Origin: an uncultured Deinococcales bacterium
GTDB lineage: Bacteria > Deinococcota > Deinococci > Deinococcales > JAAFIG01
NCBI GenBank assembly: GCA_964247135.1
Contig: CAXTTL010000085.1
Coordinates: 1-17,799 of the forward strand
Direction: 5' to 3'
Length of the DNA: 17,799 nt
Positions within the stretch are counted from its first letter, which is position 1. Each line of letters starts with the position of its first letter. Under the pieces are notes generated by a model. It was not told the DNA's origin and ran no database searches. It saw only the letters and a list, made by a program, of their open reading frames with translations. Made by a program: the position numbers and the translations under genes. Below are positions 58-15,275 of this stretch, piece after piece.

Positions 58-312
58 GTTGACCCCTCTTTTATTGCGTCACAGACGATTGAAGGTTAAA
101 TTTTGGAACATCAAGAATTTCAACGTCCCACGATATCATCTGGCGGCGGCGTATGTACAGAGCCAAATGCGGTATTGATAACGGGGTGAAAACGTAACGC
201 GATTCGCAGTGAATACCCCTCGAGTTGTGTTAGATTCCTCAGTTCAAAAGACCAGTTGATTTGATCAAAGTTTGAGTGAGTCCATATTTAAATCTCGAGT
301 TGGCAGTTGGTA

Positions 313-368
313 GTAGGGTGCGCCTCGCGCACCGTCTTTCACGTGTTTTGATGTGAGGGGCACCTTGC
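313..368. repeat. GTAG-type REP plus degenerate inverted partner (REPIN-like doublet)
   Basis: GTAG-GGTGCGC-CTC-GCGCACC at 313-333 has a perfect 7-bp stem. It is followed by a spacer and a decayed inverted copy ending AGGGGCACCTTGC. It aligns, including the spacer, to the reverse complement of 3646-3833 once the insert there is removed. Confidence 0.75.
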
Positions 369-2626: not shown

Positions 2627-3217
2627 TTAATGAATGGTACTGAGTACTTCTTGACGTTCGAGCGCATCGTGTGCCCGTTGGCTCGAGAGACGATCACCGG
2701 TTTCGGATAAAAACAACGGACCGCGCGAACGCCCAGACAGGTACGAACGCAAGACGCGACTCGCCTCGCCAAGTTTGACCCGCACGCCAGAAAGCAAGGT
2801 CAGGGCATTGTCGCGCCAACTGACATCCTCGGCGTTCAGCATCACGATTTCAGTGACGCGCAACTGCGTGGTCTGAACGATCTCACCGAGCGCCTGATTG
2901 CGGTTGCGCACATAAGATTCTTGCGCCACGCGCGGCGAACGGTGGGGAATGCTGACCCGTAACGCGGGATTTCGCTCGAGTTGCCCTGAGAACTCCAGGA
3001 AATCACCATACGCCCGCAACGCCGCCAACTTTCGTGACACGGTTGCCCTGGCTGTGCCACGACCTGCCAGCACGGACAAGTAATTCTCGAGGTCGGGCGC
3101 GTCAAAAACCCGCACAGACTCGAGCGCCATTGTCACATCGGCAATGTAGGCACGGATGGTTCTTTCGCTCGAGCCTCGGGCTTCGAGATACGTTTGAAAA
3201 TCTTTGGTTGCTTCCAT
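2627..3217 (-). CDS. XerC/XerD-like tyrosine recombinase homolog lacking the C-terminal catalytic half
   Basis: N-terminal integrase SAM-like core (SERTIRAY...RATVSRKLAALRAY...RNPA), box I-like TQLRVTEIVMLNAEDV and PLFLSETGDRLS. The ORF stops at 196 aa, before any HxxR motif or catalytic Tyr. Confidence 0.75.
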   Translation of the reverse strand: MEATKDFQTYLEARGSSERTIRAYIADVTMALESVRVFDAPDLENYLSVLAGRGTARATVSRKLAALRAYGDFLEFSGQLERNPALRVSIPHRSPRVAQESYVRNRNQALGEIVQTTQLRVTEIVMLNAEDVSWRDNALTLLSGVRVKLGEASRVLRSYLSGRSRGPLFLSETGDRLSSQRAHDALERQEVLSTIH

Positions 3218-3645: not shown

Positions 3646-3833
3646 GTAGGGTGCGCTTCTTGACCATAAAATGCACCTTCTTGATTCCAAGACGCACCTT
3701 CTTGACCATAAAATGCACCTAACGGGCATGGTCGCTAACGGGCGGAATCGCTGACGGGCTTGGGGCGCTCACGGGCATGGTCGCCCCGCGCACCAGAGGT
3801 ACGTGAGACACGGTGCGCAAGGCGCACCCTAAC
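3646..3833. repeat. REPIN-like doublet whose first REP is interrupted by a 128-bp nested repeat array
   Basis: GTAGGGTGCG (3646-3655) joined to CCCCGCGCACC (3784-3794) reconstitutes a REP. An inverted REP GGTGCGCAAGGCGCACCCTAAC lies at 3812-3833. The element sits between convergent genes. Confidence 0.8.
3656..3783. repeat. Nested A3-B4 short-repeat array
   Basis: Three 21-bp units CTTCTT-N6-AARAYG-CAC (3656-3676, 3677-3697, 3698-3718), then four 16-17 bp units CTN-ACGGGC-N6/7-G (3719-3734, 3735-3750, 3751-3767, 3768-3783). Confidence 0.9.
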
Positions 3834-3839
3834 AAAAAC

Positions 3840-6530
3840 TTAAAATTTTCCGTCTTCAGGTTGCGGCAACCCCAGCCCCTCGAGTTGCCCCAAAATCAGG
3901 TTTTTGTCGCCCACCAAGACCAGCAAACTTTTCTCGAGCGCTAACATGTTGGGCGCGAGCGTGTTGAGGCTGGCGGCGTCAAAGGTCGAGAGTTCATCGA
4001 GGGTTGCGCCCAAGCTCGAGAAGGGTTTGCCTTGCACAAATAATTCTTGGGCAGTGCCAATCAGACCCTCGAGCGTCCCAAGGCTGGCGATGGTGTTGAA
4101 ACGCCGTACCGCTGCGGTTTTGCTGGCTTCCTCCGGTGTGATGTCCCCTGGGGTGAGGCGTTTGAATTCGCTCAAAAACTCGCGCAGGCTGGCTCCGGTC
4201 ACGCTGGCTTCGACATCGGTTGCGATGCGCAAATAGCCACTTTTTTGGTTTTGATTCAAGCTCGAGTACACGCCGTAGGTGTATCCCTTGTCTTCGCGCA
4301 AGTTTTGCATCAATCGGCTGGTGAAGGTGTCGCCCAACAGGACGTTCAGGCTGGCGAGTTGGTTGCTGCTGGGGTCGGTTGCCAGCGGCGCAGGAAAGAT
4401 AAAACGAATCGCGGTTTGACTCGAGCCTGGACGGTCCACAATCACCACGCGCTGGGTTTGATTGGCGGGTTGCGGGTAGTTGAGGGTCTCGAGCGGTTTG
4501 CTGGTGTTTTTCCAACCTTTTAATGCCGCCTCGAGCGCGGTTTTGAAATCGCTGGGCTTCAGGCTGCCCGCCGCAAAAACGAGCGCATTGTGCGGTTGCA
4601 TCACGGTTTTGTATTCGGCAATGACATCGCCGAGTTGCATTCTGGAAACGCTCGAGATGTTGCCATTAACCGAATTGGCGGCTGGGTGATCGCGTCCAAA
4701 ATACTCGCGCAGGGCAACTTTGCGTGCCACGGTGTCGATGTCGTCCTTTTCGGCTGCCAGTTCGCTGAGTTTGGAACGTTGGATTTCCTTAAAATTGGAA
4801 ACTTTAAAGCTTGGACGCAGCAGGGCGTCGCCGTACAACTCGAGTGCCGCCTTGAGGTTGGCGCTGGCGACGCTCAGGTTAACCGTCGAAAATTGCAGGT
4901 CGCTGCCGGCGTTAAAACTCGCGCCAATGCCGTTCAGGGCTTGCTCGAAGGCTTGGGCATCGCGTTTTCCGGCACCCAGACCGAGCAATTCGGTCATGAT
5001 GCTCGAGCGTCCGGCGTTATTTTGGTTTTCAATGTCTGCGCCGCCACGAAACAGCGTTGAAATGTACGTCAGTGGCAGGTTCGCACGCTGCCAGTAATTG
5101 ACTTTGACGCCGCTCGAGAGGCTGAATTCGGTCATGGCTGGGGGTTTAAACGTGGTAATGGCGGAGTCTGGCGGACGCGGCACGTTGACTTCATCGCTGT
5201 TGCGGCTTGGGGCTGGCAGCACGTTGATCACGACTCTGGCATTGAAATTTAAAACCAGTTTGGCACGCGCCAACAAACTTTTTGGCGTGACCTTGCGGTA
5301 GCGCTCGAGGTCAAAGGCAAAACTGTTCGGGTTGCCCAGGTAAAACTGGTAATTGTTCAAGGCATCGGCTTTGGCAGCCAAATCTTGCAAGGCTTCAAGT
5401 TTGTGGGTCTCGAGCGCCCGAACATAAGGCACCAAGCTTGCGGCACTCACGCCTTTTTTCAAGAATTCCTTGAGGTTTTTGTCAATCGCCGCCTCGAGCT
5501 TCCCTGGCGTGATGCCGCTGGCAGGGATGGCTTCAATGCTAAACACGCCACCCAAGGCTTGCGAAATGTTGGACACGCTGACATCGTCCGCCAAACCCGC
5601 CACCACCAAATTCTGGTACAACCGACTCGAGTAACCCTCGCCCAGCACCTGCGCCAGCAGATCGGTTTCGGCATCGTTGTAACCGTACAAGCGCGGGCTG
5701 TGCCACGCCATAATCACTTTCGGCGCGGAGACGTTGTCGGCAAAGGTGGCGCGTTTGACCGCCAGCAATTTTGCATCGGGCACGGGTTTGCGCAAAATAT
5801 CGGACGCTCTGGGAATGCTTTTAAACAAACCCGAGATCAGTGGCTTGATTTTCTTGGGGTCAAAATCGCCAGCCACCACCATCGAGGCGTTGTTCGGCAC
5901 GTAATAGGTGTTGAAAAACCGTTTGACATCCGCCACGGTTGCCGCGTTCAAATCCTCTTCGGTGCCAATAACCGGATTGAAATACGGATGGTTGCTCGGG
6001 TACAGGTATTTGCTCAACGCATCCTCGGCTTGGGCATAAGGCGTGCCAATCACGTTCTGACGCATTTCGTTCAAGACCACATTGCGCTGCAAATCGAGTT
6101 TTTTCTGGTCAATGTTTTTGCCCAGATTCGCCATCCGATCCGCCTCGAGCCACAACAGCGTCGGAAGTTGCGAACTCGGACCGCTCGAGTAATAATTGGT
6201 GTAATCGGCGTTGGTGCTGGCGTTGTTGCTGCCGCCGCCCGCCTCCATGATCTTGTCAAAATTGGGCGCGGCTTTGGTGCCCATGAACATTAAATGTTCA
6301 AACAGATGCGCGAATCCCGAACGCATGGCGGGTTCGTCCTTGGAACCGACCCGAAACCACAAGTTGACCGCCGCCGTCGGCAGGCTGTGATCGACGTGCA
6401 AAATCACGGTCAGACCGTTTTGCAACACGTACTTTTCGGTCGCCACGTTGAGCTTTTGGGCAAATGCTCCGGGCAGCAAGCTCGAGACGGTCAAAGCGGT
6501 AAAAATCAGGGTTTTTTTGAATCGGTTCAT
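3840..6530 (-). CDS. Secreted M16 (pitrilysin/PqqL-like) zinc peptidase
   Basis: 896 aa with a signal peptide (AFA-Q), inverted zinc motif AHLFEHLMF, NASTNADYTNY, and C-terminal SRLMQNLREDKGYTYG. Confidence 0.95.
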   Translation of the reverse strand: MNRFKKTLIFTALTVSSLLPGAFAQKLNVATEKYVLQNGLTVILHVDHSLPTAAVNLWFRVGSKDEPAMRSGFAHLFEHLMFMGTKAAPNFDKIMEAGGGSNNASTNADYTNYYSSGPSSQLPTLLWLEADRMANLGKNIDQKKLDLQRNVVLNEMRQNVIGTPYAQAEDALSKYLYPSNHPYFNPVIGTEEDLNAATVADVKRFFNTYYVPNNASMVVAGDFDPKKIKPLISGLFKSIPRASDILRKPVPDAKLLAVKRATFADNVSAPKVIMAWHSPRLYGYNDAETDLLAQVLGEGYSSRLYQNLVVAGLADDVSVSNISQALGGVFSIEAIPASGITPGKLEAAIDKNLKEFLKKGVSAASLVPYVRALETHKLEALQDLAAKADALNNYQFYLGNPNSFAFDLERYRKVTPKSLLARAKLVLNFNARVVINVLPAPSRNSDEVNVPRPPDSAITTFKPPAMTEFSLSSGVKVNYWQRANLPLTYISTLFRGGADIENQNNAGRSSIMTELLGLGAGKRDAQAFEQALNGIGASFNAGSDLQFSTVNLSVASANLKAALELYGDALLRPSFKVSNFKEIQRSKLSELAAEKDDIDTVARKVALREYFGRDHPAANSVNGNISSVSRMQLGDVIAEYKTVMQPHNALVFAAGSLKPSDFKTALEAALKGWKNTSKPLETLNYPQPANQTQRVVIVDRPGSSQTAIRFIFPAPLATDPSSNQLASLNVLLGDTFTSRLMQNLREDKGYTYGVYSSLNQNQKSGYLRIATDVEASVTGASLREFLSEFKRLTPGDITPEEASKTAAVRRFNTIASLGTLEGLIGTAQELFVQGKPFSSLGATLDELSTFDAASLNTLAPNMLALEKSLLVLVGDKNLILGQLEGLGLPQPEDGKF

Positions 6531-6607: not shown

Positions 6608-7486
6608 GTGAAAATTGGTTTACCAGATACTTTAAGATACCAGCGTTACGGCGCGTGGTGGGAAGCGTTTTTAACAAATCTTGGCGTTGAGATCATCAAA
6701 CCCAGCCTGCCACTCGAGGATTCACTGAGCGAGGGAATGCGTCTGATGCCCTCCGAACCCGTGACCGTGCAATTGTTCGTCGGACGCGTGCTCGAGCTTG
6801 CGCCGTTGGTCGATGCCATCATAGTTCCAGACTTGAACCCTGGCGCCGAACCAGGCATGGGACAAGCGGTTGACCCCTGGATGGTAGACCTTGCCAGTAT
6901 GCTCTCACGGCGCTTTTCGCTGCCGGCACTGCACAGCATTCCAACCCGTCTGAACGAAACCGAAACCTCGGGTTTTGCCGTGCGGCTGGGCGTGAACATG
7001 ATGCAAAACACGACCCTGGTGCGGCGTTCGATGGACCGAATGCAGACGGGCTTAAAACCTGCCAAACCCAGCGAACCAATATGGGCAAAAGCGGGTTTCT
7101 CGAGCATCGGTTTGGTCGGCGACCCAAGCTTGCTCGAGACAGAATTTTTACTCAAAGATTTTATCGCCCTTCTCGAGCAATATAAGCTCCATGCTGTGAA
7201 CGCCAGCGAGATGCCCCGCGAAAAAGTGCTCGAGTTTGGACGCAAGAAATTACCAGACGCGCTCGAGACGGACGTTGAAACCGTGGGCGGCGCGACGTTC
7301 TTGGAGGGCAAAGCCCAGATTTTGGGTCTGATCGCGCTTTCGCCCGCCAACGCGCCACTGCAAACCAAACTTGGCAAAGACATTGTCAAACGCGCCCGAA
7401 AACCGAGCATTCAACTCGAGCTTGGGGCGGTTGACCTCGAGATGAAAGTGGCGGCGCTTGCGGGGTTGTTTGGGGAAGTGAATTAA
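6608..7486 (+). CDS. DUF2229-like / acyl-CoA dehydratase activase-related protein (divergent, cysteine-free)
   Basis: N-terminus MKIGLPDTLRYQRYGAWWEAFLTNLGVEII, VDAIIVP and IGLVGDP resemble that family. TAGACT lies 6 nt before the GTG. Confidence 0.6.
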   Translation: MKIGLPDTLRYQRYGAWWEAFLTNLGVEIIKPSLPLEDSLSEGMRLMPSEPVTVQLFVGRVLELAPLVDAIIVPDLNPGAEPGMGQAVDPWMVDLASMLSRRFSLPALHSIPTRLNETETSGFAVRLGVNMMQNTTLVRRSMDRMQTGLKPAKPSEPIWAKAGFSSIGLVGDPSLLETEFLLKDFIALLEQYKLHAVNASEMPREKVLEFGRKKLPDALETDVETVGGATFLEGKAQILGLIALSPANAPLQTKLGKDIVKRARKPSIQLELGAVDLEMKVAALAGLFGEVN

Positions 7487-7560
7487 GCTCGAGTGTTCTC
7501 GGATTTATGGATAGCCAAATGCGGTATTTTTCTTGCTGAACACGGAGAACGGCAGATTGC

Positions 7561-7674
7561 CTCCTCTCATCCCCGACCCTTCTTGACCATTCCCGCACCT
7601 TCTTGTTTTCAAGACGCACCTTACGGGCGAAACCGCTTCGGGCATGGTCGCTTCTCTTCCAGGAGAGAAGGGAG
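7561..7674. repeat. Palindromic intergenic element (CTCTCATCCCCGACCCTTCTCT...AGAGAAGGGAG) interrupted by a 72-bp nested array
   Basis: Removing 7579-7650 gives the perfect 9-bp stem CCCTTCTCT-TCCAGG-AGAGAAGGG preceded by a C-rich leader. Located between convergent genes. Confidence 0.7.
7579..7650. repeat. Nested A2-B2 short-repeat array (same family as 3656-3783)
   Basis: Units CTTCTTGACCATTCCCGCAC (7579-7598), CTTCTTGTTTTCAAGACGCAC (7599-7619), CTTACGGGCGAAACCG (7620-7635), CTTCGGGCATGGTCG (7636-7650). Confidence 0.9.
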
Positions 7675-7721
7675 TTTTGTTGATTTCTCGAGAAATCGGA
7701 ATTCCGTTTCTCAAACGCCAT

Positions 7722-8540
7722 TCAGTTTTGGACTGGCGGTTTGATGATCGGTTTTTTAACTTTCATCTCGTCGTTGTAGGCAATCTTGGTGTGATCCCCC
7801 TCGAGCGTTGCCCTGAAACTGGTTTTGTCTGCTCGGGCGAAGCGCTCGGTGTACTCGAAGACCTGGTTTTTTTCGTTGCTGATGATGCGTTGCGTGTACA
7901 AAATCGGTGCGCCGCTTTTAATGTCGAGTAGCCGCGCCAGCCAAGGTTCGGCTTTGATGGCTTCGATGATTTCTTCGCCGTGAACGAATTTTAAACCGTA
8001 TTTGACTTTCAAAATCTCGTACAGCGATCCCGTCAAATCCTGCTCGAGAATCCCTGGGGTCAGGGCGTAATTCAGGTGCGTGCGCTCGAGCATCAGGGGT
8101 TGATCGTCCACAAAACGCAATCGCAAGGTGACCGCCATGATGCTGTTCTTGGACATTTTCAGCACCCGAGCGCCGCGTCCAAGGGCTGGCTCGAGCACGC
8201 CCGAAATCAGTTTGGTGGTCGTCTCGAAGCCGGCTTGACGCATGTCTTCGGTGAATCCTTTGACCATGCTGAGGGGCTGTTCGACTTTGGCTGGCGCTGG
8301 GAACGTACCGCGTCCCTGTTGGCGCACCAACCAACCGTCCGCCTCCAGCGCTTGCAAGGCTTGACGCACGGTGGCTCGAGAGAGTTGCAACGCCTCGCTG
8401 AGGTCACGTTCGCTGGGCAGCGGCGTTTCGGCGTCCCATTCGCCGTGCTGCAAGGTTTGACCGATGGCGTCCCGAAGCTGCTTGTACAGCGGAATCAAAG
8501 AATTTTTGTCAAGTCGGTACAACGCGCCAGGAAGTTTCAT
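7722..8540 (-). CDS. GntR family (HutC/UTRA) transcriptional regulator
   Basis: wHTH PLYKQL...LPSERDLSEALQLSRATVRQALQALEADGWLVRQQGRGTF followed by a UTRA domain (GFTEDM, SLYEIL). SD GAGAGG lies 5 nt before ATG 8540 (alternative TTG 8543). Confidence 0.95.
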   Translation of the reverse strand: MKLPGALYRLDKNSLIPLYKQLRDAIGQTLQHGEWDAETPLPSERDLSEALQLSRATVRQALQALEADGWLVRQQGRGTFPAPAKVEQPLSMVKGFTEDMRQAGFETTTKLISGVLEPALGRGARVLKMSKNSIMAVTLRLRFVDDQPLMLERTHLNYALTPGILEQDLTGSLYEILKVKYGLKFVHGEEIIEAIKAEPWLARLLDIKSGAPILYTQRIISNEKNQVFEYTERFARADKTSFRATLEGDHTKIAYNDEMKVKKPIIKPPVQN

Positions 8541-8555
8541 CAAAGCCTCTCAAGT

Positions 8556-8604: not shown

Positions 8605-9906
8605 ATGGCAGGTTTTGACGCATACAGTTCATCAATCGTGCCGTCTGGTAATCTCGAGCATGGCAAGATTACTGTGAATCCCGAGACTTCCGAACTGAAT
8701 CCCGCATCTCGAGCGCGAGCCTTGTACGTCCTGCTCGCCGCCACGTTCTTGATGTGGGGCGGTTTTTTCATGGTCATCCCATTGATTGGGCTGCACTTCA
8801 TCAACGACCTGGGTTGGGCTGCCTCGAGCATCGGTTTGATTCTGGCGGTGCGCCAATTTACCCAGCAGGGTTTGACCGTGTTCGGCGGGGCGCTGGCAGA
8901 CCGTGTGGGGGTTCGCGTTTTGATCCTCTCGGGCTTGCTGGTGCGCAGCATCGGTTTTGCCCTGATGGGTTTCGCCACCAATTTTGTGACTTTAATGCTG
9001 GCGAGTTTGCTGGCTGCCCTGGGCGGCGCGTTGTTCGATGCGCCGCGCAACGCCGCCATCGCCGCCTTGACCGAAGACAGTAACCGTGCCAAGTTTTATG
9101 CGCTCGGCGGTGTGATCGGAAACTTGGGTATGACGATTGGACCGCTGCTCGGCACGTTGCTGTTCAAAACCGGTTTCACCACCGTCGCCCTGGTCAGCGC
9201 CGGATGTTACGTCTTAACCCTGTTGCTGACCAGCATTTTCTTGCCCAACGTCAAAACCTCTGGCGACAGCAACCCGAACAAACCCCTGGCAGGCTTGGGC
9301 GTGGTCTTTGGGGACTCGAGGTTCGTGCTGTTCACCGTGTTTTTGATGGGTTACTGGTTGATGTGGTCGCAATTTAGCATCGCCATTTCGCTGGCGGCGG
9401 TGGCGGTGGCACACAGCAAAGACGCCGTCAGTTGGGTCTACACCCTGAATGCTTTGATGAGCGTGTTCTTGCAATACCCAGTCTCGAGGTTTCTGGCGGG
9501 CAGGGTTAGACCCATGCAAGCCGTGGTGATCGGCATGGGCGTCATGGCAATCGGCATTGGCAGTCTGGCTTTTGCTGGCAACATCGTCCTGTTTCTCTCG
9601 AGTTTGGTGGTTCTCAGCTTTGGCGGGGTGATCGCCACGCCGAGCGTTCAAACCACCACCGCCGAACTCGCCAACCCAAGACTGCTCGGCAGTTATTTTG
9701 GCGTCAATGCCCTGTCGTTGGCGGTTGGTGGAGGGCTGGGCAACTTGGTCGGCGGCACGCTCTACCAGACCAGTTTGCAACTCGAGAAACCTTGGCTGCC
9801 ATGGGTGGTCTTCGCTGGGGTCGGATTTTTATGCACGGTTGGTCTGGCGTTTTTGAATGCTCGGATTTCAGTGCAGCAGCAACGCGCCAACCAGACCAGT
9901 CAGTAA
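8605..9906 (+). CDS. mdtH: MFS transporter, MdtH-like
   Basis: About 12 TM segments; motifs LAVRQFTQQGLTVFGGALADRVG, LFDAPR, GSYFG resemble MdtH. Start is uncertain (ATG 8605 or GTG 8674); the track start 8464 overlaps gntR. Confidence 0.8.
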   Translation: MAGFDAYSSSIVPSGNLEHGKITVNPETSELNPASRARALYVLLAATFLMWGGFFMVIPLIGLHFINDLGWAASSIGLILAVRQFTQQGLTVFGGALADRVGVRVLILSGLLVRSIGFALMGFATNFVTLMLASLLAALGGALFDAPRNAAIAALTEDSNRAKFYALGGVIGNLGMTIGPLLGTLLFKTGFTTVALVSAGCYVLTLLLTSIFLPNVKTSGDSNPNKPLAGLGVVFGDSRFVLFTVFLMGYWLMWSQFSIAISLAAVAVAHSKDAVSWVYTLNALMSVFLQYPVSRFLAGRVRPMQAVVIGMGVMAIGIGSLAFAGNIVLFLSSLVVLSFGGVIATPSVQTTTAELANPRLLGSYFGVNALSLAVGGGLGNLVGGTLYQTSLQLEKPWLPWVVFAGVGFLCTVGLAFLNARISVQQQRANQTSQ

Positions 9907-10407
9907 AATCACCAGCATCGTGCTCGAGCGCTTGGTGTAAATCACAAAGGCTGCCAAAATTGTCAAAACCCCAGCAACAATCGCCGTTTGCAGATTCAAA
10001 CTCGAGAATGCCGCACGGGTCAAACTGAGCACGCCACCCGCCGAAAGACCCAAACCGATTGGCAGCAACGCTCCGCGAATCGCCCAAGACCACTTTGAGC
10101 GCTTTAATCGTTCCCAAACTCGAGCCAGTGCCGCAGAAGCGATTGCTCCAGGCAAAAACATGCCCAAAAAACCCGCAAAAGCCCCCGCCAGACCCGCCAC
10201 ACGAAACCCGTAAAACATCATGGCGAGCATGTTCGGTCCCGGCACGAACTGCCCGAGCGCGAAACCATCGGTGAATTCTCGGGTGGTCAGCCAATGGCGT
10301 TCGGTCACCAAGGAACGCGACATTTCCGAGAGCATGGCGACCCCACCACCGAAGCTGAGGATGCCGTAGCGCAGAAACTCGAGCAGCACCGTGAAAAAAT
10401 CAGGCAT
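9868..10407 (-). CDS. chrA: Short-chain chromate transporter (CHR), second subunit
   Basis: SFGGG, WLTTREFTDGFALGQFVPGPN. Overlaps the upstream partner by 8 bp and the convergent MFS 3' end by 39 bp. Confidence 0.9.
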   Translation of the reverse strand: MPDFFTVLLEFLRYGILSFGGGVAMLSEMSRSLVTERHWLTTREFTDGFALGQFVPGPNMLAMMFYGFRVAGLAGAFAGFLGMFLPGAIASAALARVWERLKRSKWSWAIRGALLPIGLGLSAGGVLSLTRAAFSSLNLQTAIVAGVLTILAAFVIYTKRSSTMLVILLTGLVGALLLH

Positions 10408-10942
10408 CGGGTTTCGCGTTCCAATTCAGGGCAATGCCGAGCGGCAGCAAGACCAGCAAGACCCACAGGATTGGCAGGTGAAGCACGCCGTTTGCCACGA
10501 ACGCCGCAAGGGCAATCAAGGGCGCTCCAATGGATTTCAGACCAGGCGGCGCGACCCGCGCCAGTGTTGCCAGCGAAATGCCCACCGCACCCGCCGCCAC
10601 GCCCGTGAGCGCCCCTGTGACCACAGGACTCGAGAATTCCCGAACCGCAAAATATGCAAAACTCAACCCCAAAATTGCCAGCATTCCAGGCAGGCACACG
10701 CCAACGAACGCCGCGATTGCCCCTCGGGTGCCGCGCAGGTGCATTCCGATGTGCGCGGCGAAATTGGCAAAAATAGGACCTGGAAGTAACTGGCTTAAAC
10801 TTAAACCCTCGAGAAATTCGGCTTCGGTCAACCAGCCGCGACGCGCGACGATGTGGTTGTGAATGTGGGCGCTGCCGCCGCCGCCAAAGGCACTCGCGCC
10901 GACGATCACAAACGCCTTAAAAATCTCAAAGCTTGAAGGCAT
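10400..10942 (-). CDS. chrA: Short-chain chromate transporter (CHR), first subunit
   Basis: AFGGG, WLTEAEFLEGLSLSQLLPGP. Start set at ATG 10942 (MPSSFEIF), with TATGCT 5 nt upstream; the longer ORF start only reads through the tandem repeat. Confidence 0.9.
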   Translation of the reverse strand: MPSSFEIFKAFVIVGASAFGGGGSAHIHNHIVARRGWLTEAEFLEGLSLSQLLPGPIFANFAAHIGMHLRGTRGAIAAFVGVCLPGMLAILGLSFAYFAVREFSSPVVTGALTGVAAGAVGISLATLARVAPPGLKSIGAPLIALAAFVANGVLHLPILWVLLVLLPLGIALNWNAKPDA

Positions 10943-10979
10943 AGCCCAGCATACGAGAATCAAGCGCTGGAAAACCGTA

Positions 10980-11067
10980 CCGCTCGGGTGACGGGTTCGA
11001 GTCCCGCTCGGGTGACGGGTTCGAGTCCCGCTCGGGTGACGGGTTCGAGTCCCGCTCGGGTGACGGG
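10980..11067. repeat. Perfect 24-bp tandem repeat, about 3.7 copies
   Basis: CCGCTCGGGTGACGGGTTCGAGTC at 10980-11003, 11004-11027 and 11028-11051, plus a 16-bp partial copy at 11052-11067. Confidence 0.95.
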
Positions 11068-11101
11068 CATTCAACGGCTCAGGCATGTCAAACTGCGGAA
11101 C

Positions 11102-12577
11102 GTGCGCCTTGTGACCCTAGCGAACATCAACCTTTCTTTAAACGCAAAACCCGTTTTGCACAACATCAATTTCACCTTGCTCGAGCATCAATGTTGGGCG
11201 ATTCTGGGCGCGAACGGTGCGGGCAAAAGTTCGCTGTTAAAGCTTGTGCGCGGCGATTTGTGGCATAACCCCAATGAGGGAACGCGAAGGTATTTTTTCA
11301 CCGACCCACCGCGCGAAAGCCCAATCGGCGCGAAAGAACAAATCGCCTTCGTCAGTCCAGAATTGCAAGACCGTTACGCCAGACTCGAGCTGTGGGTGAC
11401 GGGCGTGGACGTGGTGCGGTCGGGATTCGAGCAAACCGATTTTGTCCACACGGCACTGTTGCCAGATCAAGAAGCTCGAGTTCAAAAACTTCTGCACGAT
11501 TTTCAACTCGAGCCTTTGCGCGACAAACCCGTGTTGGAGATGAGCAAAGGGCAATTGCGCCGTATTTTGTTGGCTCGAGCACTTGTCAGCAACCCCAGGG
11601 TCTTGATGCTCGACGAGTGCTTTTCTGGGGTTGATCCAGAATCAAAAAAACACCTCATGCAAGTTGTGAACGATACGGCTCGAGCTGGCTTGACCGTGCT
11701 TTATACCACCCACCGAGCAGAGGAAAAACTCGAGTTCACCACCCACGAACTCAAACTCGAGCGCGGCAGAATCGTTGAAGAATTTCAAACCGTCAAGCCA
11801 ACCAAACCACGCCGTGCCAAAGCTCGAGCGTCCAAAAAATCGGTGCCATTGATCGAAGTACAACACGCCAACGTCTACCTGGGCAATCCTGTCGGCAGTG
11901 AAACCTCGCCGGACGGTTCGGGCGAACCCAGCAAAAAACTGGTGCTCGAGAACATCAACCTGACCATCTCGAGTGCGGAACACTGGGCGATTGTGGGGCA
12001 CAACGGCGCTGGAAAAAGCACCCTCTCCAAACTGCTGCTGGGCGAACTCGAGCCTGCGCTTGGCGGCACGGTCAAACGTTTTGGTTTGACTCAAATGCCC
12101 ATCTGGGAGCGTCAAGCCCGAATCGGTCTGATCTCGAGCGACACCCAAGTTCGGCATCGCGTGAATGCAAGCGGCGAAACGGTTGTTGCCAGCGGTTTTT
12201 TTGGCAGCGTCGGCTGGACATATCCGCTCGAGAAAGCCCAAAAAAACAGGGTTGCCGAACTGCTCGAAAAACTCGAGATCACGCATTTGGCACAAAAATC
12301 GGCGCTCGAGACTTCACACGGCGAACTGAAAAAATTGCTGATTGCCAGAAGTTTGGTGACACATCCCGACATCGTGATTCTGGATGAGGCGTTTGATTAC
12401 CTCGACGCACACTCGAGAAACCTGTTGTTTGAACTGATCGAATCCGAAGCTGACCGCACGCAATTTGTCACGGTGGCGCACCGACCCGAGGACATTCCGA
12501 AACTCAGCACCCACGCTTTAAGGCTCGAGGTTGGACGCATCACGTTTTGTGGGAAGATTGAGAATCTGAAGTTCTGA
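11102..12577 (+). CDS. modF: Tandem-domain ABC ATPase, ModF-like
   Basis: Two NBDs: GANGAGKS / MSKGQ / LMLDE and GHNGAGKS / TSHGE / VILDE, plus IAFVSPELQ and VVASGFFGSVG. Start placed at GTG 11102, after the repeat. Confidence 0.8.
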   Translation: MRLVTLANINLSLNAKPVLHNINFTLLEHQCWAILGANGAGKSSLLKLVRGDLWHNPNEGTRRYFFTDPPRESPIGAKEQIAFVSPELQDRYARLELWVTGVDVVRSGFEQTDFVHTALLPDQEARVQKLLHDFQLEPLRDKPVLEMSKGQLRRILLARALVSNPRVLMLDECFSGVDPESKKHLMQVVNDTARAGLTVLYTTHRAEEKLEFTTHELKLERGRIVEEFQTVKPTKPRRAKARASKKSVPLIEVQHANVYLGNPVGSETSPDGSGEPSKKLVLENINLTISSAEHWAIVGHNGAGKSTLSKLLLGELEPALGGTVKRFGLTQMPIWERQARIGLISSDTQVRHRVNASGETVVASGFFGSVGWTYPLEKAQKNRVAELLEKLEITHLAQKSALETSHGELKKLLIARSLVTHPDIVILDEAFDYLDAHSRNLLFELIESEADRTQFVTVAHRPEDIPKLSTHALRLEVGRITFCGKIENLKF

Positions 12578-14192: not shown

Positions 14193-14702
14193 ATGGCAGC
14201 ATTTCACCCAGACGAATGGCAAAAGTTTGATTATCAGCTTTTGAGGAACAGTCCAGTGACTCTTTACCATCGTTTGGAAGTTTTGGATCAAGTTTTATTG
14301 CAGTTGAAAACAGAGGGTTACACAATTGACGAGTTGGATTGTTCCACTTGGAAATCGGAGGTGGATTTTCATAGAGATATTGCCAAATGTCTCGAGTTTC
14401 CAGATTATTATGGTCAAAACCTGGATGCTTTCAATGACTGCATGAAGGACATCGAAGTTCCAGATTTGGGTGGAAGAATTATTGTGCTTCGGAAGTTTGA
14501 TTCATTCGCACGGCATGAACCAGAAGTTGCGCAAAGCGTGTTGGATATTTTGGCAAGAAGCTCATGGCGTTTTTTGCTAATGGGACAACGACTCATGACT
14601 CTTGTGCAGTCTGATGACCCTCGTATTGCCTTTGATCGGGTCGGAGCACACCCTGTCAGATGGAATCCACAGGAATGGTTGAACAAAAATCGAGGATTGT
14701 GA
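14193..14702 (+). CDS. Barstar-family (RNase inhibitor/immunity) protein
   Basis: LDCSTWKSEVDFHRDIAKCLEFPDYYGQNLDAFNDCM matches the barstar motif FPxYYGxNLDAxxD. TAGAGT lies 6 nt before the ATG. Confidence 0.85.
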   Translation: MAAFHPDEWQKFDYQLLRNSPVTLYHRLEVLDQVLLQLKTEGYTIDELDCSTWKSEVDFHRDIAKCLEFPDYYGQNLDAFNDCMKDIEVPDLGGRIIVLRKFDSFARHEPEVAQSVLDILARSSWRFLLMGQRLMTLVQSDDPRIAFDRVGAHPVRWNPQEWLNKNRGL

Positions 14703-14750: not shown

Positions 14751-15275
14751 TTATCTCGAGATTCGGTTTTTCACAGCCCACATCAAAACCCCTTCAACCC
14801 TTACGCCCTCGAGTTCAGCCTCAACACAATCCACAGTTTCAAGCTCGAGTGTGGATAACCCGTTCAATGCTGGCTCCAGTCGGTCTGCGAGCGTGTTGGC
14901 GTTGTCGATTTGCAGTCCCGCGAAGCTCGAGCCGTCCGTAAAAACGTAGACTTTTAAATCATCTAAAATTTCACTCTCGAGCGCTTCGAGTTGTTCGCGC
15001 CCAGCAATCTCGAGGTAGAGTCTGCCGCGTCCACCCATGCCCTCACTTCGGTAGTCGATGGTCATTTGCGGACGGTCACTTGTGGGTGCTGCTCGAGTTT
15101 CTAAAACTTGATTCGCAAGTTGCTCGAGAGCATTTCTAATCTCGAGCATTTCAGTTTCGGTCAGATCATCCGAAACTGCATTCAAAGTAAATTCTCGCTC
15201 GAGTGCAGTTACCGCAAAAGCACTTGGTTTCACTCGAGCAATCATTTCAAGCCATTGTGCGGTGTTGCGTTTCAA
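14751..15275 (-). CDS. Hypothetical acidic protein
   Basis: 174-aa ORF whose TTG start overlaps the TGA stop of the upstream AGPS-like gene by 4 nt; no recognisable motif. Confidence 0.65.
   Translation of the reverse strand: MKRNTAQWLEMIARVKPSAFAVTALEREFTLNAVSDDLTETEMLEIRNALEQLANQVLETRAAPTSDRPQMTIDYRSEGMGGRGRLYLEIAGREQLEALESEILDDLKVYVFTDGSSFAGLQIDNANTLADRLEPALNGLSTLELETVDCVEAELEGVRVEGVLMWAVKNRISR

Follow-up and report, generated by a model that had tools for sequence, protein, structure and literature searches.

Nested arrays of a short hairpin unit in repeated hairpins of uncultured Deinococcales bacteria

Positions 7579-7650 of the window, that is, of the whole 17,799-nt stretch analyzed here from an uncultured Deinococcales bacterium, contain two nested copies of a unit of about 37 nt, in the order L(GACCAT) L(GTTTTC) R(GAAACC) R(ATGGTC), where L and R are left and right halves. 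This array, designated array 2, probably arose when a non-autonomous mobile hairpin module inserted twice in succession. The unit belongs to a family in which the nesting is balanced, the two arms covary, orthologous sites are filled in one genome and empty in another, inner units have been exchanged, some copies lie in frame within genes, and the boundaries precede C, mostly as CT. The core of the original prediction, which had been made from the window alone and proposed a high-copy modular element sitting in hairpins, is supported by the at least 156 distinct arrays that were parsed.

The arrays in the window and their host hairpins

The consensus of the unit is CTTCTTG, a 5-nt arm, a 4-7-nt spacer, GCACCT-N-ACGGGC, the complementary arm, and CG. 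The ends of the unit pair with each other to form a 6-bp stem, the sequence of which is free as long as it is paired; the 5' tail and the loop are constant. The commonest arm type is GACCAT/ATGGTC, found in 49 of the 228 matched pairs from the listed arrays. In array 2, the hexamers are located at 7585-7590 (GACCAT), 7605-7610 (GTTTTC), 7629-7634 (GAAACC), and 7644-7649 (ATGGTC), and a direct check of the sequence found all the predicted strings in their places. The outer arms had been described as perfectly complementary over an extended length. This is correct for the hexamers, but the extension GACCATTCCCG/CGGGCATGGTC pairs at 10 of 11 positions, with a T/C mismatch at position 7. The inner pair, GTTTTC/GAAACC, is complementary at five of six positions, as claimed. 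GTTTTC is not the new hexamer it was taken for: it is a point-mutated member of the GGTTTC/GAAACC subtype, which was seen at least four times elsewhere with perfect arms. Related units of this subtype with perfect arms are carried by the loci L027 and L043.

Array 2 and array 1, at 3656-3783, have the termini CTTCTTGACCAT...GGGCATGGTCGC in common, in agreement with the original prediction. Array 1 is detected by Tandem Repeats Finder as a period of 21 at 3656-3720, which corresponds to the left unit, and a period of 16 at 3719-3784, which corresponds to the right unit. The motif GACCATNCCCG, with at most one mismatch, occurs six times in the window against 1.18 expected (one of 200 shuffles reaches six), and the motif ACGGGCN6GC occurs five times against 1.01 expected. 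The 67-nt core folds as DNA with -13.4 kcal/mol (z = -3.61; 0 of 200 shuffles equal). Array 2 is situated between convergent genes, a DUF2229-domain ORF (6608-7486, + strand) and a GntR/UTRA regulator (7722-8543, - strand). Across the whole window, the Rfam covariance models gave no match at the gathering threshold, and the tRNA, plasmid, and phage searches gave no match.

Table 1. Positions of the arrays, their parts, and their host repeats in the window
Feature	Position	Strand	Basis or remark
Array 2, two nested units, bracket word (())	7579..7650	+	Sequence and tokeniser
Outer unit, left half: CTTCTTG, arm GACCAT, spacer TCCC, GCAC	7579..7598	+	Token list
Inner complete 37-nt unit, arms GTTTTC/GAAACC, between GCAC and CT of the outer loop	7599..7635	+	
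Inner unit, left half CTTCTTG-TTTTC-AAGAC-GCAC	7599..7619	+	Tokeniser
Inner unit, right half CTTACGGGC-GAAAC-CG	7620..7635	+	Tokeniser
Outer unit, right half: CTTCGGGC, arm ATGGTC, G (= CTTCGGGC-ATGGT-CG)	7636..7650	+	Token list
Host repeat of array 2, left part (..CTCCTCTCATCCCCGACC), repeated terminator-like hairpin family	7557..7578	+	BLAST against the loci
Host hairpin of array 2, remainder (CTTCTCT TCCAGG AGAGAAG GG) and T-rich tail	7651..7679	+	Consensus scan
Array 1, L L L R R R R: three nested units GACCAT[GATTCC[GACCAT and orphan right half	3656..3783	+	
Orphan right half of array 1, TTGGGGC	3751..3767	+	
REP carrying array 1: GTAG head with left arm GGTGCG(C)	3646..3655	+	
Remaining loop and right arm GCGCACC of the REP carrying array 1	3784..3794	+	
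Intact REP copy, inverse, adjoining array 1 (GGTGCGC AAG GCGCACC at 3812-3828)	3801..3840	-	83% complementary to 305-344
Intact REP copy (GTAG 313-316; GGTGCGC CTC GCGCACC 317-333)	305..344	+	

Array 2 splits the stem CCCTTCT..CT/AGAGAAGGG, as had been predicted. Deletion of 7579-7650 gives GACC+CTTCTCTTCCAGGAGAGAAGGG, with a 9-bp stem, a 6-nt loop, and a T-rich tail, which is the uninterrupted form present in other copies. Deletion of 3656-3783 in array 1 gives GTAG-GGTGCGC-CCC-GCGCACC, with a 7-bp stem and a 3-nt loop as in intact REP copies. Excision thus restores the repeated hairpin and the REP, respectively, and both hosts in the window are themselves repeats. The host palindromes of the original prediction are not unique sequences; one is a GTAG-headed REP, and the other is a repeated terminator-like hairpin. 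In BLAST, the loci L027 (88% over 127 nt), L043, and L105 match window positions 7557-7679. A terminator-like hairpin persists beside array 2, with scan matches at 7651-7670 and 7652-7674, in terms of a consensus match only, the region having 9 sites against 9.0 expected. The pattern of this hairpin family gave 21 matches; after exclusion of one chance match and one match cut by a contig end, 19 readable copies remained among the listed loci, of which 5 have the uninterrupted form and the other 14 have an array, always at one point.

Together with the inverse copy at 3801-3840, the REP that hosts array 1 makes up an inverted pair, resembling a REPIN, of the family GTAG GGTGCGC NNN GCGCACC, and related REPs (GTAGGGGCG...) are frequent hosts of units in the MAG loci. 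A MITE-like composite of about 200 bp has the terminator-like hairpin as its left end; the composite has the inverted ends ..CCACCCTCATCCCCGACC.. and ..GAATGAGGGTGG.. and is seen at L003 (about 5800-6020; minus-strand view at 9332), L040, L049, L065, and L091. Window positions 7557-7700 correspond to its left part. Units also accumulate, in the opposite orientation, at a second site within the composite.

The family in Deinococcota genomes

The reference genomes were scanned with a pattern for the array center, CTTCTTG-N9-11-GCACCT-N-ACGGGC, which at least 108 stretches matched; because an intact center was needed, this census favors intact units. By our own arithmetic, about 13 chance matches are estimated over the whole collection. 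At least 105 loci (838 kb) were listed, of which 101 are from 15 Deinococcota assemblies, nearly all of them MAGs of uncultured "Deinococcales bacterium" together with one closed chromosome. The recurrence of the bracket grammar in these 101 loci, outside the window, is the strongest evidence that the pattern is real. The remaining four listed loci are single matches in unrelated phyla, and the two that were inspected (L005 and L033) fall inside ORFs. Many matches are at contig ends. The listed loci belong to genomes other than that of the window, and the comparisons of filled and empty sites rest on these loci. BLAST of the window against them gave repeat-sized matches only, plus one 67%-identical gene in L020.

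A tokeniser for the left and right halves was run on the listed loci and the window. All the halves of an array are on one strand, as nested or tandem brackets. Among 156 listed arrays, 126 form balanced words (single, tandem, or nested), the commonest being () with 88 arrays, (()) with 23, ((())) with 5, and ()() with 3; the deepest is a 15-token tree in L025. The other 30 words are unbalanced, and some of these are tokeniser misses. The arrays are mainly outside genes: 23 of 155 listed arrays lie in open frames of at least 200 aa, compared with 53.9% of random positions.

The bracket structure is reflected in the pairing of the arms. In the 228 stack-matched pairs, 4.21 of the 5 variable arm positions are complementary, compared with 2.26 ± 0.07 for shuffled partners (maximum 2.50 in 1000 shuffles), and the 50 non-adjacent outer pairs, the halves of which are parted by inner units, score 4.18 of 5. 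In the 92 in-register units, 93.5% of the cells are paired, and slid registers reach 55.7% at most. Cells with double changes number 140 in these units against 52.0 ± 4.8 in shuffles, and the covariation score is 0.620 against 0.233 (0 of 500 shuffles). There are 69 arm combinations among the listed arrays. At least 12 arm types recur, each with its own spacer, so that whole units behave as lineages. The 28 listed arrays with clean nesting contain 23 different arm combinations, and in one of them the same type occupies adjacent levels. This mixing of arm types indicates insertion of foreign units rather than local duplication.

Some units are found in frame within genes. The 39-nt subtype reads LLDPK-AP-G-GS, a module of 13 residues. 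In L011 (670-3813), such a unit is in frame in a 1047-residue TPR-STAND protein, between conserved blocks. Among nine homologues of this protein (P0002-P0010; 61-100% identical over the searched part), the module is absent in seven, single in P0002, and present as three tandem copies in P0003, all at one site. More in-frame cases, all of them multiples of three, occur in L031, L038, and L048. It should also be mentioned that a putative ORF of 4299 residues in L051 (1851-14750) reads through about 120 residues of repeat-derived sequence with no stop; the repeat-derived part includes two units on the opposite strand.

Target sites, mobility, and mechanism

Filled and empty sites were found by comparison of synteny among the loci. 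One orthologous hairpin carries a four-unit array in L006 and is uninterrupted in L049 and L057. At the next REP, 200 nt away, the situation is reversed: L006 is intact, and L049 and L057 have a unit in the loop. The flanks of L006 are 87-88% identical to those of L049 and L057 over about 400 nt, and the hairpin variant itself also differs between these genomes. The uninterrupted hairpin that the original prediction called for in relatives is thus found both here and in 5 of the 19 readable family copies. In the orthologous three-deep arrays of L018 and L087 (91% column identity), the outer units are identical, but the middle and inner units differ in type, with changes on both arms. L010 and L065 have flanking genes in common and differ in their repeat mosaics. 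Another candidate for an empty site, L071 against L089 from a two-HSP search, was weak and lay inside other repeats, and it was set aside.

The boundaries are well defined. The first base of the unit is C in 106 of 123 listed arrays, and its second base is T in 119; immediately downstream of the unit there is a C in 122 arrays, and a T comes next in 95. The right flank is CC, CA, CG, or another non-CT dinucleotide in 28 of 123, and the internal boundaries of arrays all precede CT. The direct repeat CTTCT that was noted originally does exist at 7579-7583 and 7651-7655, but its reading as a target duplication does not extend to the family and was rejected. A 5-nt repeat flanks 16 of 122 listed arrays (4 of 104 outside the terminator-like hairpin family), a 3-nt repeat 50, and a 2-nt repeat 82, and array 1 has none. 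CTTCT flanks array 2 because the unit starts with the same bases that follow its insertion point there. The repeat reflects a target that resembles the start of the unit itself, not a staggered cut.

The preferred target is the loop of another unit. The original prediction of structure targeting is only partly borne out, in that 62 of 148 listed arrays are in recognized hairpin repeats and the loops of other units are preferred. The test in which the flanks were rejoined and folded gave less. Exact stems of at least 6 were found for 36 of 123 listed arrays against about 19.5 expected, and the rejoined flanks fold at -5.38 kcal/mol compared with -4.22 for shuffled partners and -3.95 for random positions, but base pairs that bridge the junction are no more frequent than at random positions (4.60 against 4.89). 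The fold evidence is too weak to claim general structure targeting. Loops of REPs receive units in both orientations (18 against 11 in the listed loci), and the orientation of the listed arrays to nearby genes is unbiased (53 same, 65 opposite). This lack of bias gives no support for a lagging-strand preference.

Explanations other than insertion of a mobile hairpin module were weighed against these data. A classical MITE, with a DDE transposase, the arms as short terminal inverted repeats, and a 2-bp CT target duplication, would be in accord with the inverted repeats at the ends of the unit and with the identity between the first two nucleotides of the array and those of the right flank, seen in 82 of 122 listed arrays. 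This CT/CT match is absent in the other 40, and the inverted repeat comprises just the five arm positions, which vary freely; with 69 combinations, no single sequence-reading transposase could recognize all of them. In addition, no parent IS with these ends was found in the 838 kb of loci, and we know of no DDE-type MITE as short as 37 nt. An origin of this kind is very unlikely. Immobile arrays might instead have expanded at their sites, through slippage during replication, template switching after fold-back, or unequal recombination inside palindromes. Perfect tandem runs (three copies in L016 and four in L042), the protein insertion present in one or three copies at a single site, the orphan halves, and the period-21 and period-16 arrays of Tandem Repeats Finder would all fit such growth. 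What slippage explains is the copy number within a site, not the arrival at a site: the same unit types are at more than 100 unrelated loci in 15 assemblies, 27 of the 28 listed nested arrays mix arm types, and orthologous sites differ by whole units. Such growth without mobility seems highly improbable.

The units might also be structures selected for function, such as terminators, mRNA-stabilizing hairpins, protein-binding sites, or structured RNAs, in which the function keeps the structure. REPs in other bacteria have secondary roles of this sort, and the location of array 2 in a terminator-like hairpin between convergent genes, the strong arm covariation, and the rarity of arrays between divergent genes (6 of 66 classifiable listed arrays) all agree with this explanation. 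It is unlikely nonetheless, for there is no Rfam match, the arrays of the window have unremarkable RNA folds (z from -0.45 to -2.20), the units are found in either orientation with respect to genes and to REP heads (18 against 11), copies are found in frame within coding sequence, and the arrival at new sites is left unexplained. A functional role is compatible with mobility as a secondary role of the units. Lastly, a tyrosine recombinase could act on folded single-stranded hairpins as on the attC sites of integrons, which likewise are read by their shape. An integrase-like ORF fragment is indeed located at 2627-3217 (- strand), 440 nt from array 1, with a weak Phage_integrase match (E = 3e-4, below the Pfam cut-off). 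This ORF is short (196 aa) as well as sub-threshold in score, there are no cassette ORFs and no attC-type core, and array 2 and most of the loci lack an integrase-like neighbor. Moreover, the crossover at attC is in the stem and is not known to give nesting. The integron-like reading is hardly credible and was rejected. The ORF at 2627-3217 itself has an N-terminal SAM-like domain and is possibly a remnant integrase.

We therefore return to insertion of a mobile module. In array 2, a GACCAT-type unit would have entered the base of the 5' arm of the terminator-like hairpin (GACC^CTTCTCT), downstream of the gene at 6608-7486. A GGTTTC-type unit would then have inserted between GCAC and CT in the loop of the first unit, and one arm mutation would have arisen later in the inner unit. 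In array 1, the same process might have occurred three times in the loop of the GTAG-headed REP, with one left half lost afterward. The units probably move as single-stranded DNA, the shape of the hairpin being recognized, and would be cut and rejoined at C|T by a HUH/Y1 enzyme acting in trans, either a RAYT or a TnpA of the IS200/IS605 type. The free arm sequence with strict pairing, the lack of duplication, and the C|T boundaries point to a single-strand enzyme of this class. Its best target seems to be the exposed loop of an existing unit, GCACC|T (GCACC|TNACGGGC), which would make insertion recursive. Tandem copies, orphan halves, and swapped units might be caused by recombination at the same boundaries, and the compensatory arm changes may be sped by repair within the hairpin.

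There is a precedent for such a reaction: TnpA-REP of Escherichia coli is described as binding the REP hairpin on single-stranded DNA, cleaving at C|T, and exchanging strands between sites (PMC3333891). Different subclasses of Y1 enzymes are described as serving different repeat families (PMC6006769). No Y1/RAYT gene was matched by a short, crude RAYT motif in the six frames of the 838 kb of loci, no Y1 transposase was found among the six ORFs flanked by REPs (DciA, MetK, CoaE, PAPS reductase, and two with no family), and none was found among the 16 main ORFs of the window. Because the loci represent about 1-2% of those genomes, the absence of the enzyme is weak evidence.

It is possible, though rather doubtful, that the units belong to an undescribed system of single-strand recombination, in which a 37-nt substrate is recognized by its shape, its CTTCTT tail, and its constant loop, its own loop is the favored target, and half-modules of 16-22 nt are swapped at C|T. 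In such a system, targeting of its own loop would write balanced, tree-like hairpin arrays into the chromosome, the enzyme would represent an undescribed HUH/Y1 lineage, separate from the RAYT that serves the co-resident GTAG REPs, and the 39-nt subtype would naturally give rise to peptide insertions of 13 residues.

Comparison with known repeats and further observations

The family works like REPs and BIMEs, the miniature derivatives of IS200/IS605, and, inside genes, the Rickettsia palindromic elements, but by the defining tests of each it does not appear to be a member of any of these groups. The resemblance to REP/REPIN-RAYT systems and BIMEs lies in short, high-copy, mostly extragenic hairpins whose pairing is kept as the sequence varies, in mosaic clusters with a copy number varying between strains, and in the cognate enzyme that acts on single-stranded DNA with a C|T cut (described in PMC3333891), for which a counterpart is proposed here. 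As a 6-bp covarying palindrome in at least 156, mainly extragenic arrays, the unit agrees with the definition of a REP. It differs in having CTTCTT on the 5' side of the stem (with an invariant TCTT in CTTCTTG) and no GT[AG]G; the GTAG is on the host REPs. Without the GT[AG]G head, the units are not typical substrates of a RAYT. They also prefer their own loop as the target, and no RAYT was found among the loci searched. In contrast to BIMEs, the units are nested or in tandem in one orientation, not paired head to head or tail to tail. Compared with DDE-type MITEs, they have no fixed-length duplication and no conserved inverted repeats, and the loci contain no parent IS.

Transposition of IS200/IS605 depends on hairpins in single-stranded DNA, needs no terminal inverted repeats, and makes no target duplication. 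The relation to hairpins, the lack of target duplication, and a short specific adjacent sequence may be features that the units share with IS200/IS605, PATEs, and ISDra2 of Deinococcus radiodurans. These elements are far longer, with a subterminal hairpin at each end, whereas both ends of the 37-nt unit form one hairpin, and no parent element of it was found in the loci. The miniature derivatives (PATEs) and ISDra2 are covered by references in PMC6006769. Rickettsia palindromic elements are described as palindromic repeats of about 150 bp that lie in frame in protein genes and add a peptide module (PMC10969869). The in-frame insertion into conserved protein genes is comparable to that of the 39-nt subtype in the TPR protein, as a similarity of behavior only. 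The Rickettsia elements are from an unrelated phylum and are longer (about 150 bp), only the 39-nt subtype of our units is a multiple of three, and the description of these elements in PMC10969869 does not mention nesting.

D. radiodurans, of the same phylum, has small noncoding repeats described as being "of an unusual, mosaic structure", with 295 copies of at least nine types (PMC1978522). Their likeness to the present units as mosaic small repeats is by description only, and no named Deinococcus species is among the at least 105 listed loci. The BOX elements of Streptococcus pneumoniae are also modular, consisting of a few short boxes, with a variable number of the internal module and a stable secondary structure. 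They are linear (A-Bn-C), in contrast to balanced nested pairs, and are unrelated in sequence and host. Our literature searches, which covered few subscription journals, found no description of the unit motif or of nested bacterial hairpin repeats; 12-mers gave unrelated primer matches, and the word "nested" is absent from a 2024 MITE review.

The family stands out by the small size of its unit, by the recursive targeting of itself, and by the clean record left behind. To our knowledge, it would be the smallest mobile unit described (37 nt). The minimal needs of a hairpin transposon become visible in it, namely a stem of 6 bp with no required sequence, together with an invariant 5' tail and loop. 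Because the units insert into the loops of each other, the order of insertion can be read from the nesting; the arm types are natural barcodes, and sites of sister genomes differ by whole units. If the enzyme is of the HUH/Y1 class, the units would be defined 37-nt substrates and possibly a compact system for site-directed insertion of single-stranded DNA. The repeats are also likely to break short-read assemblies, which is relevant to MAGs of this clade.

Several other features of the window were observed. A gene at 14193-14702 (+ strand) encodes a 169-residue Barstar-domain protein, with no recognizable barnase-like neighbor among the scanned ORFs; the adjoining ORF at 14751-15275 has no Pfam match. 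The palindrome CTCGAG occurs 135 times in the 17.8 kb against 3.35 expected (0 of 200 shuffles), and the next 6-nt palindrome occurs 17 times. The excess is clade-wide, with 4.5-7.8 copies per kb in the MAG loci, whereas two unrelated chance loci have 0.15-0.2 per kb. Of the copies within ORFs, 61 of 104 are in the phase CTC-GAG (Leu-Glu). CTCGAG resembles the highly iterated palindromes of the HIP1 kind. No report of such a palindrome for Deinococcota was found in a search that covered few subscription journals. At 10980-11067, a 24-nt sequence (CCGCTCGGGTGACGGGTTCGAGTC) is repeated perfectly in tandem (3.7 copies, 100% match), at the overlap of a chromate-transporter ORF (10400-11086, - strand) and an ABC-ATPase ORF (10988-12577, + strand).
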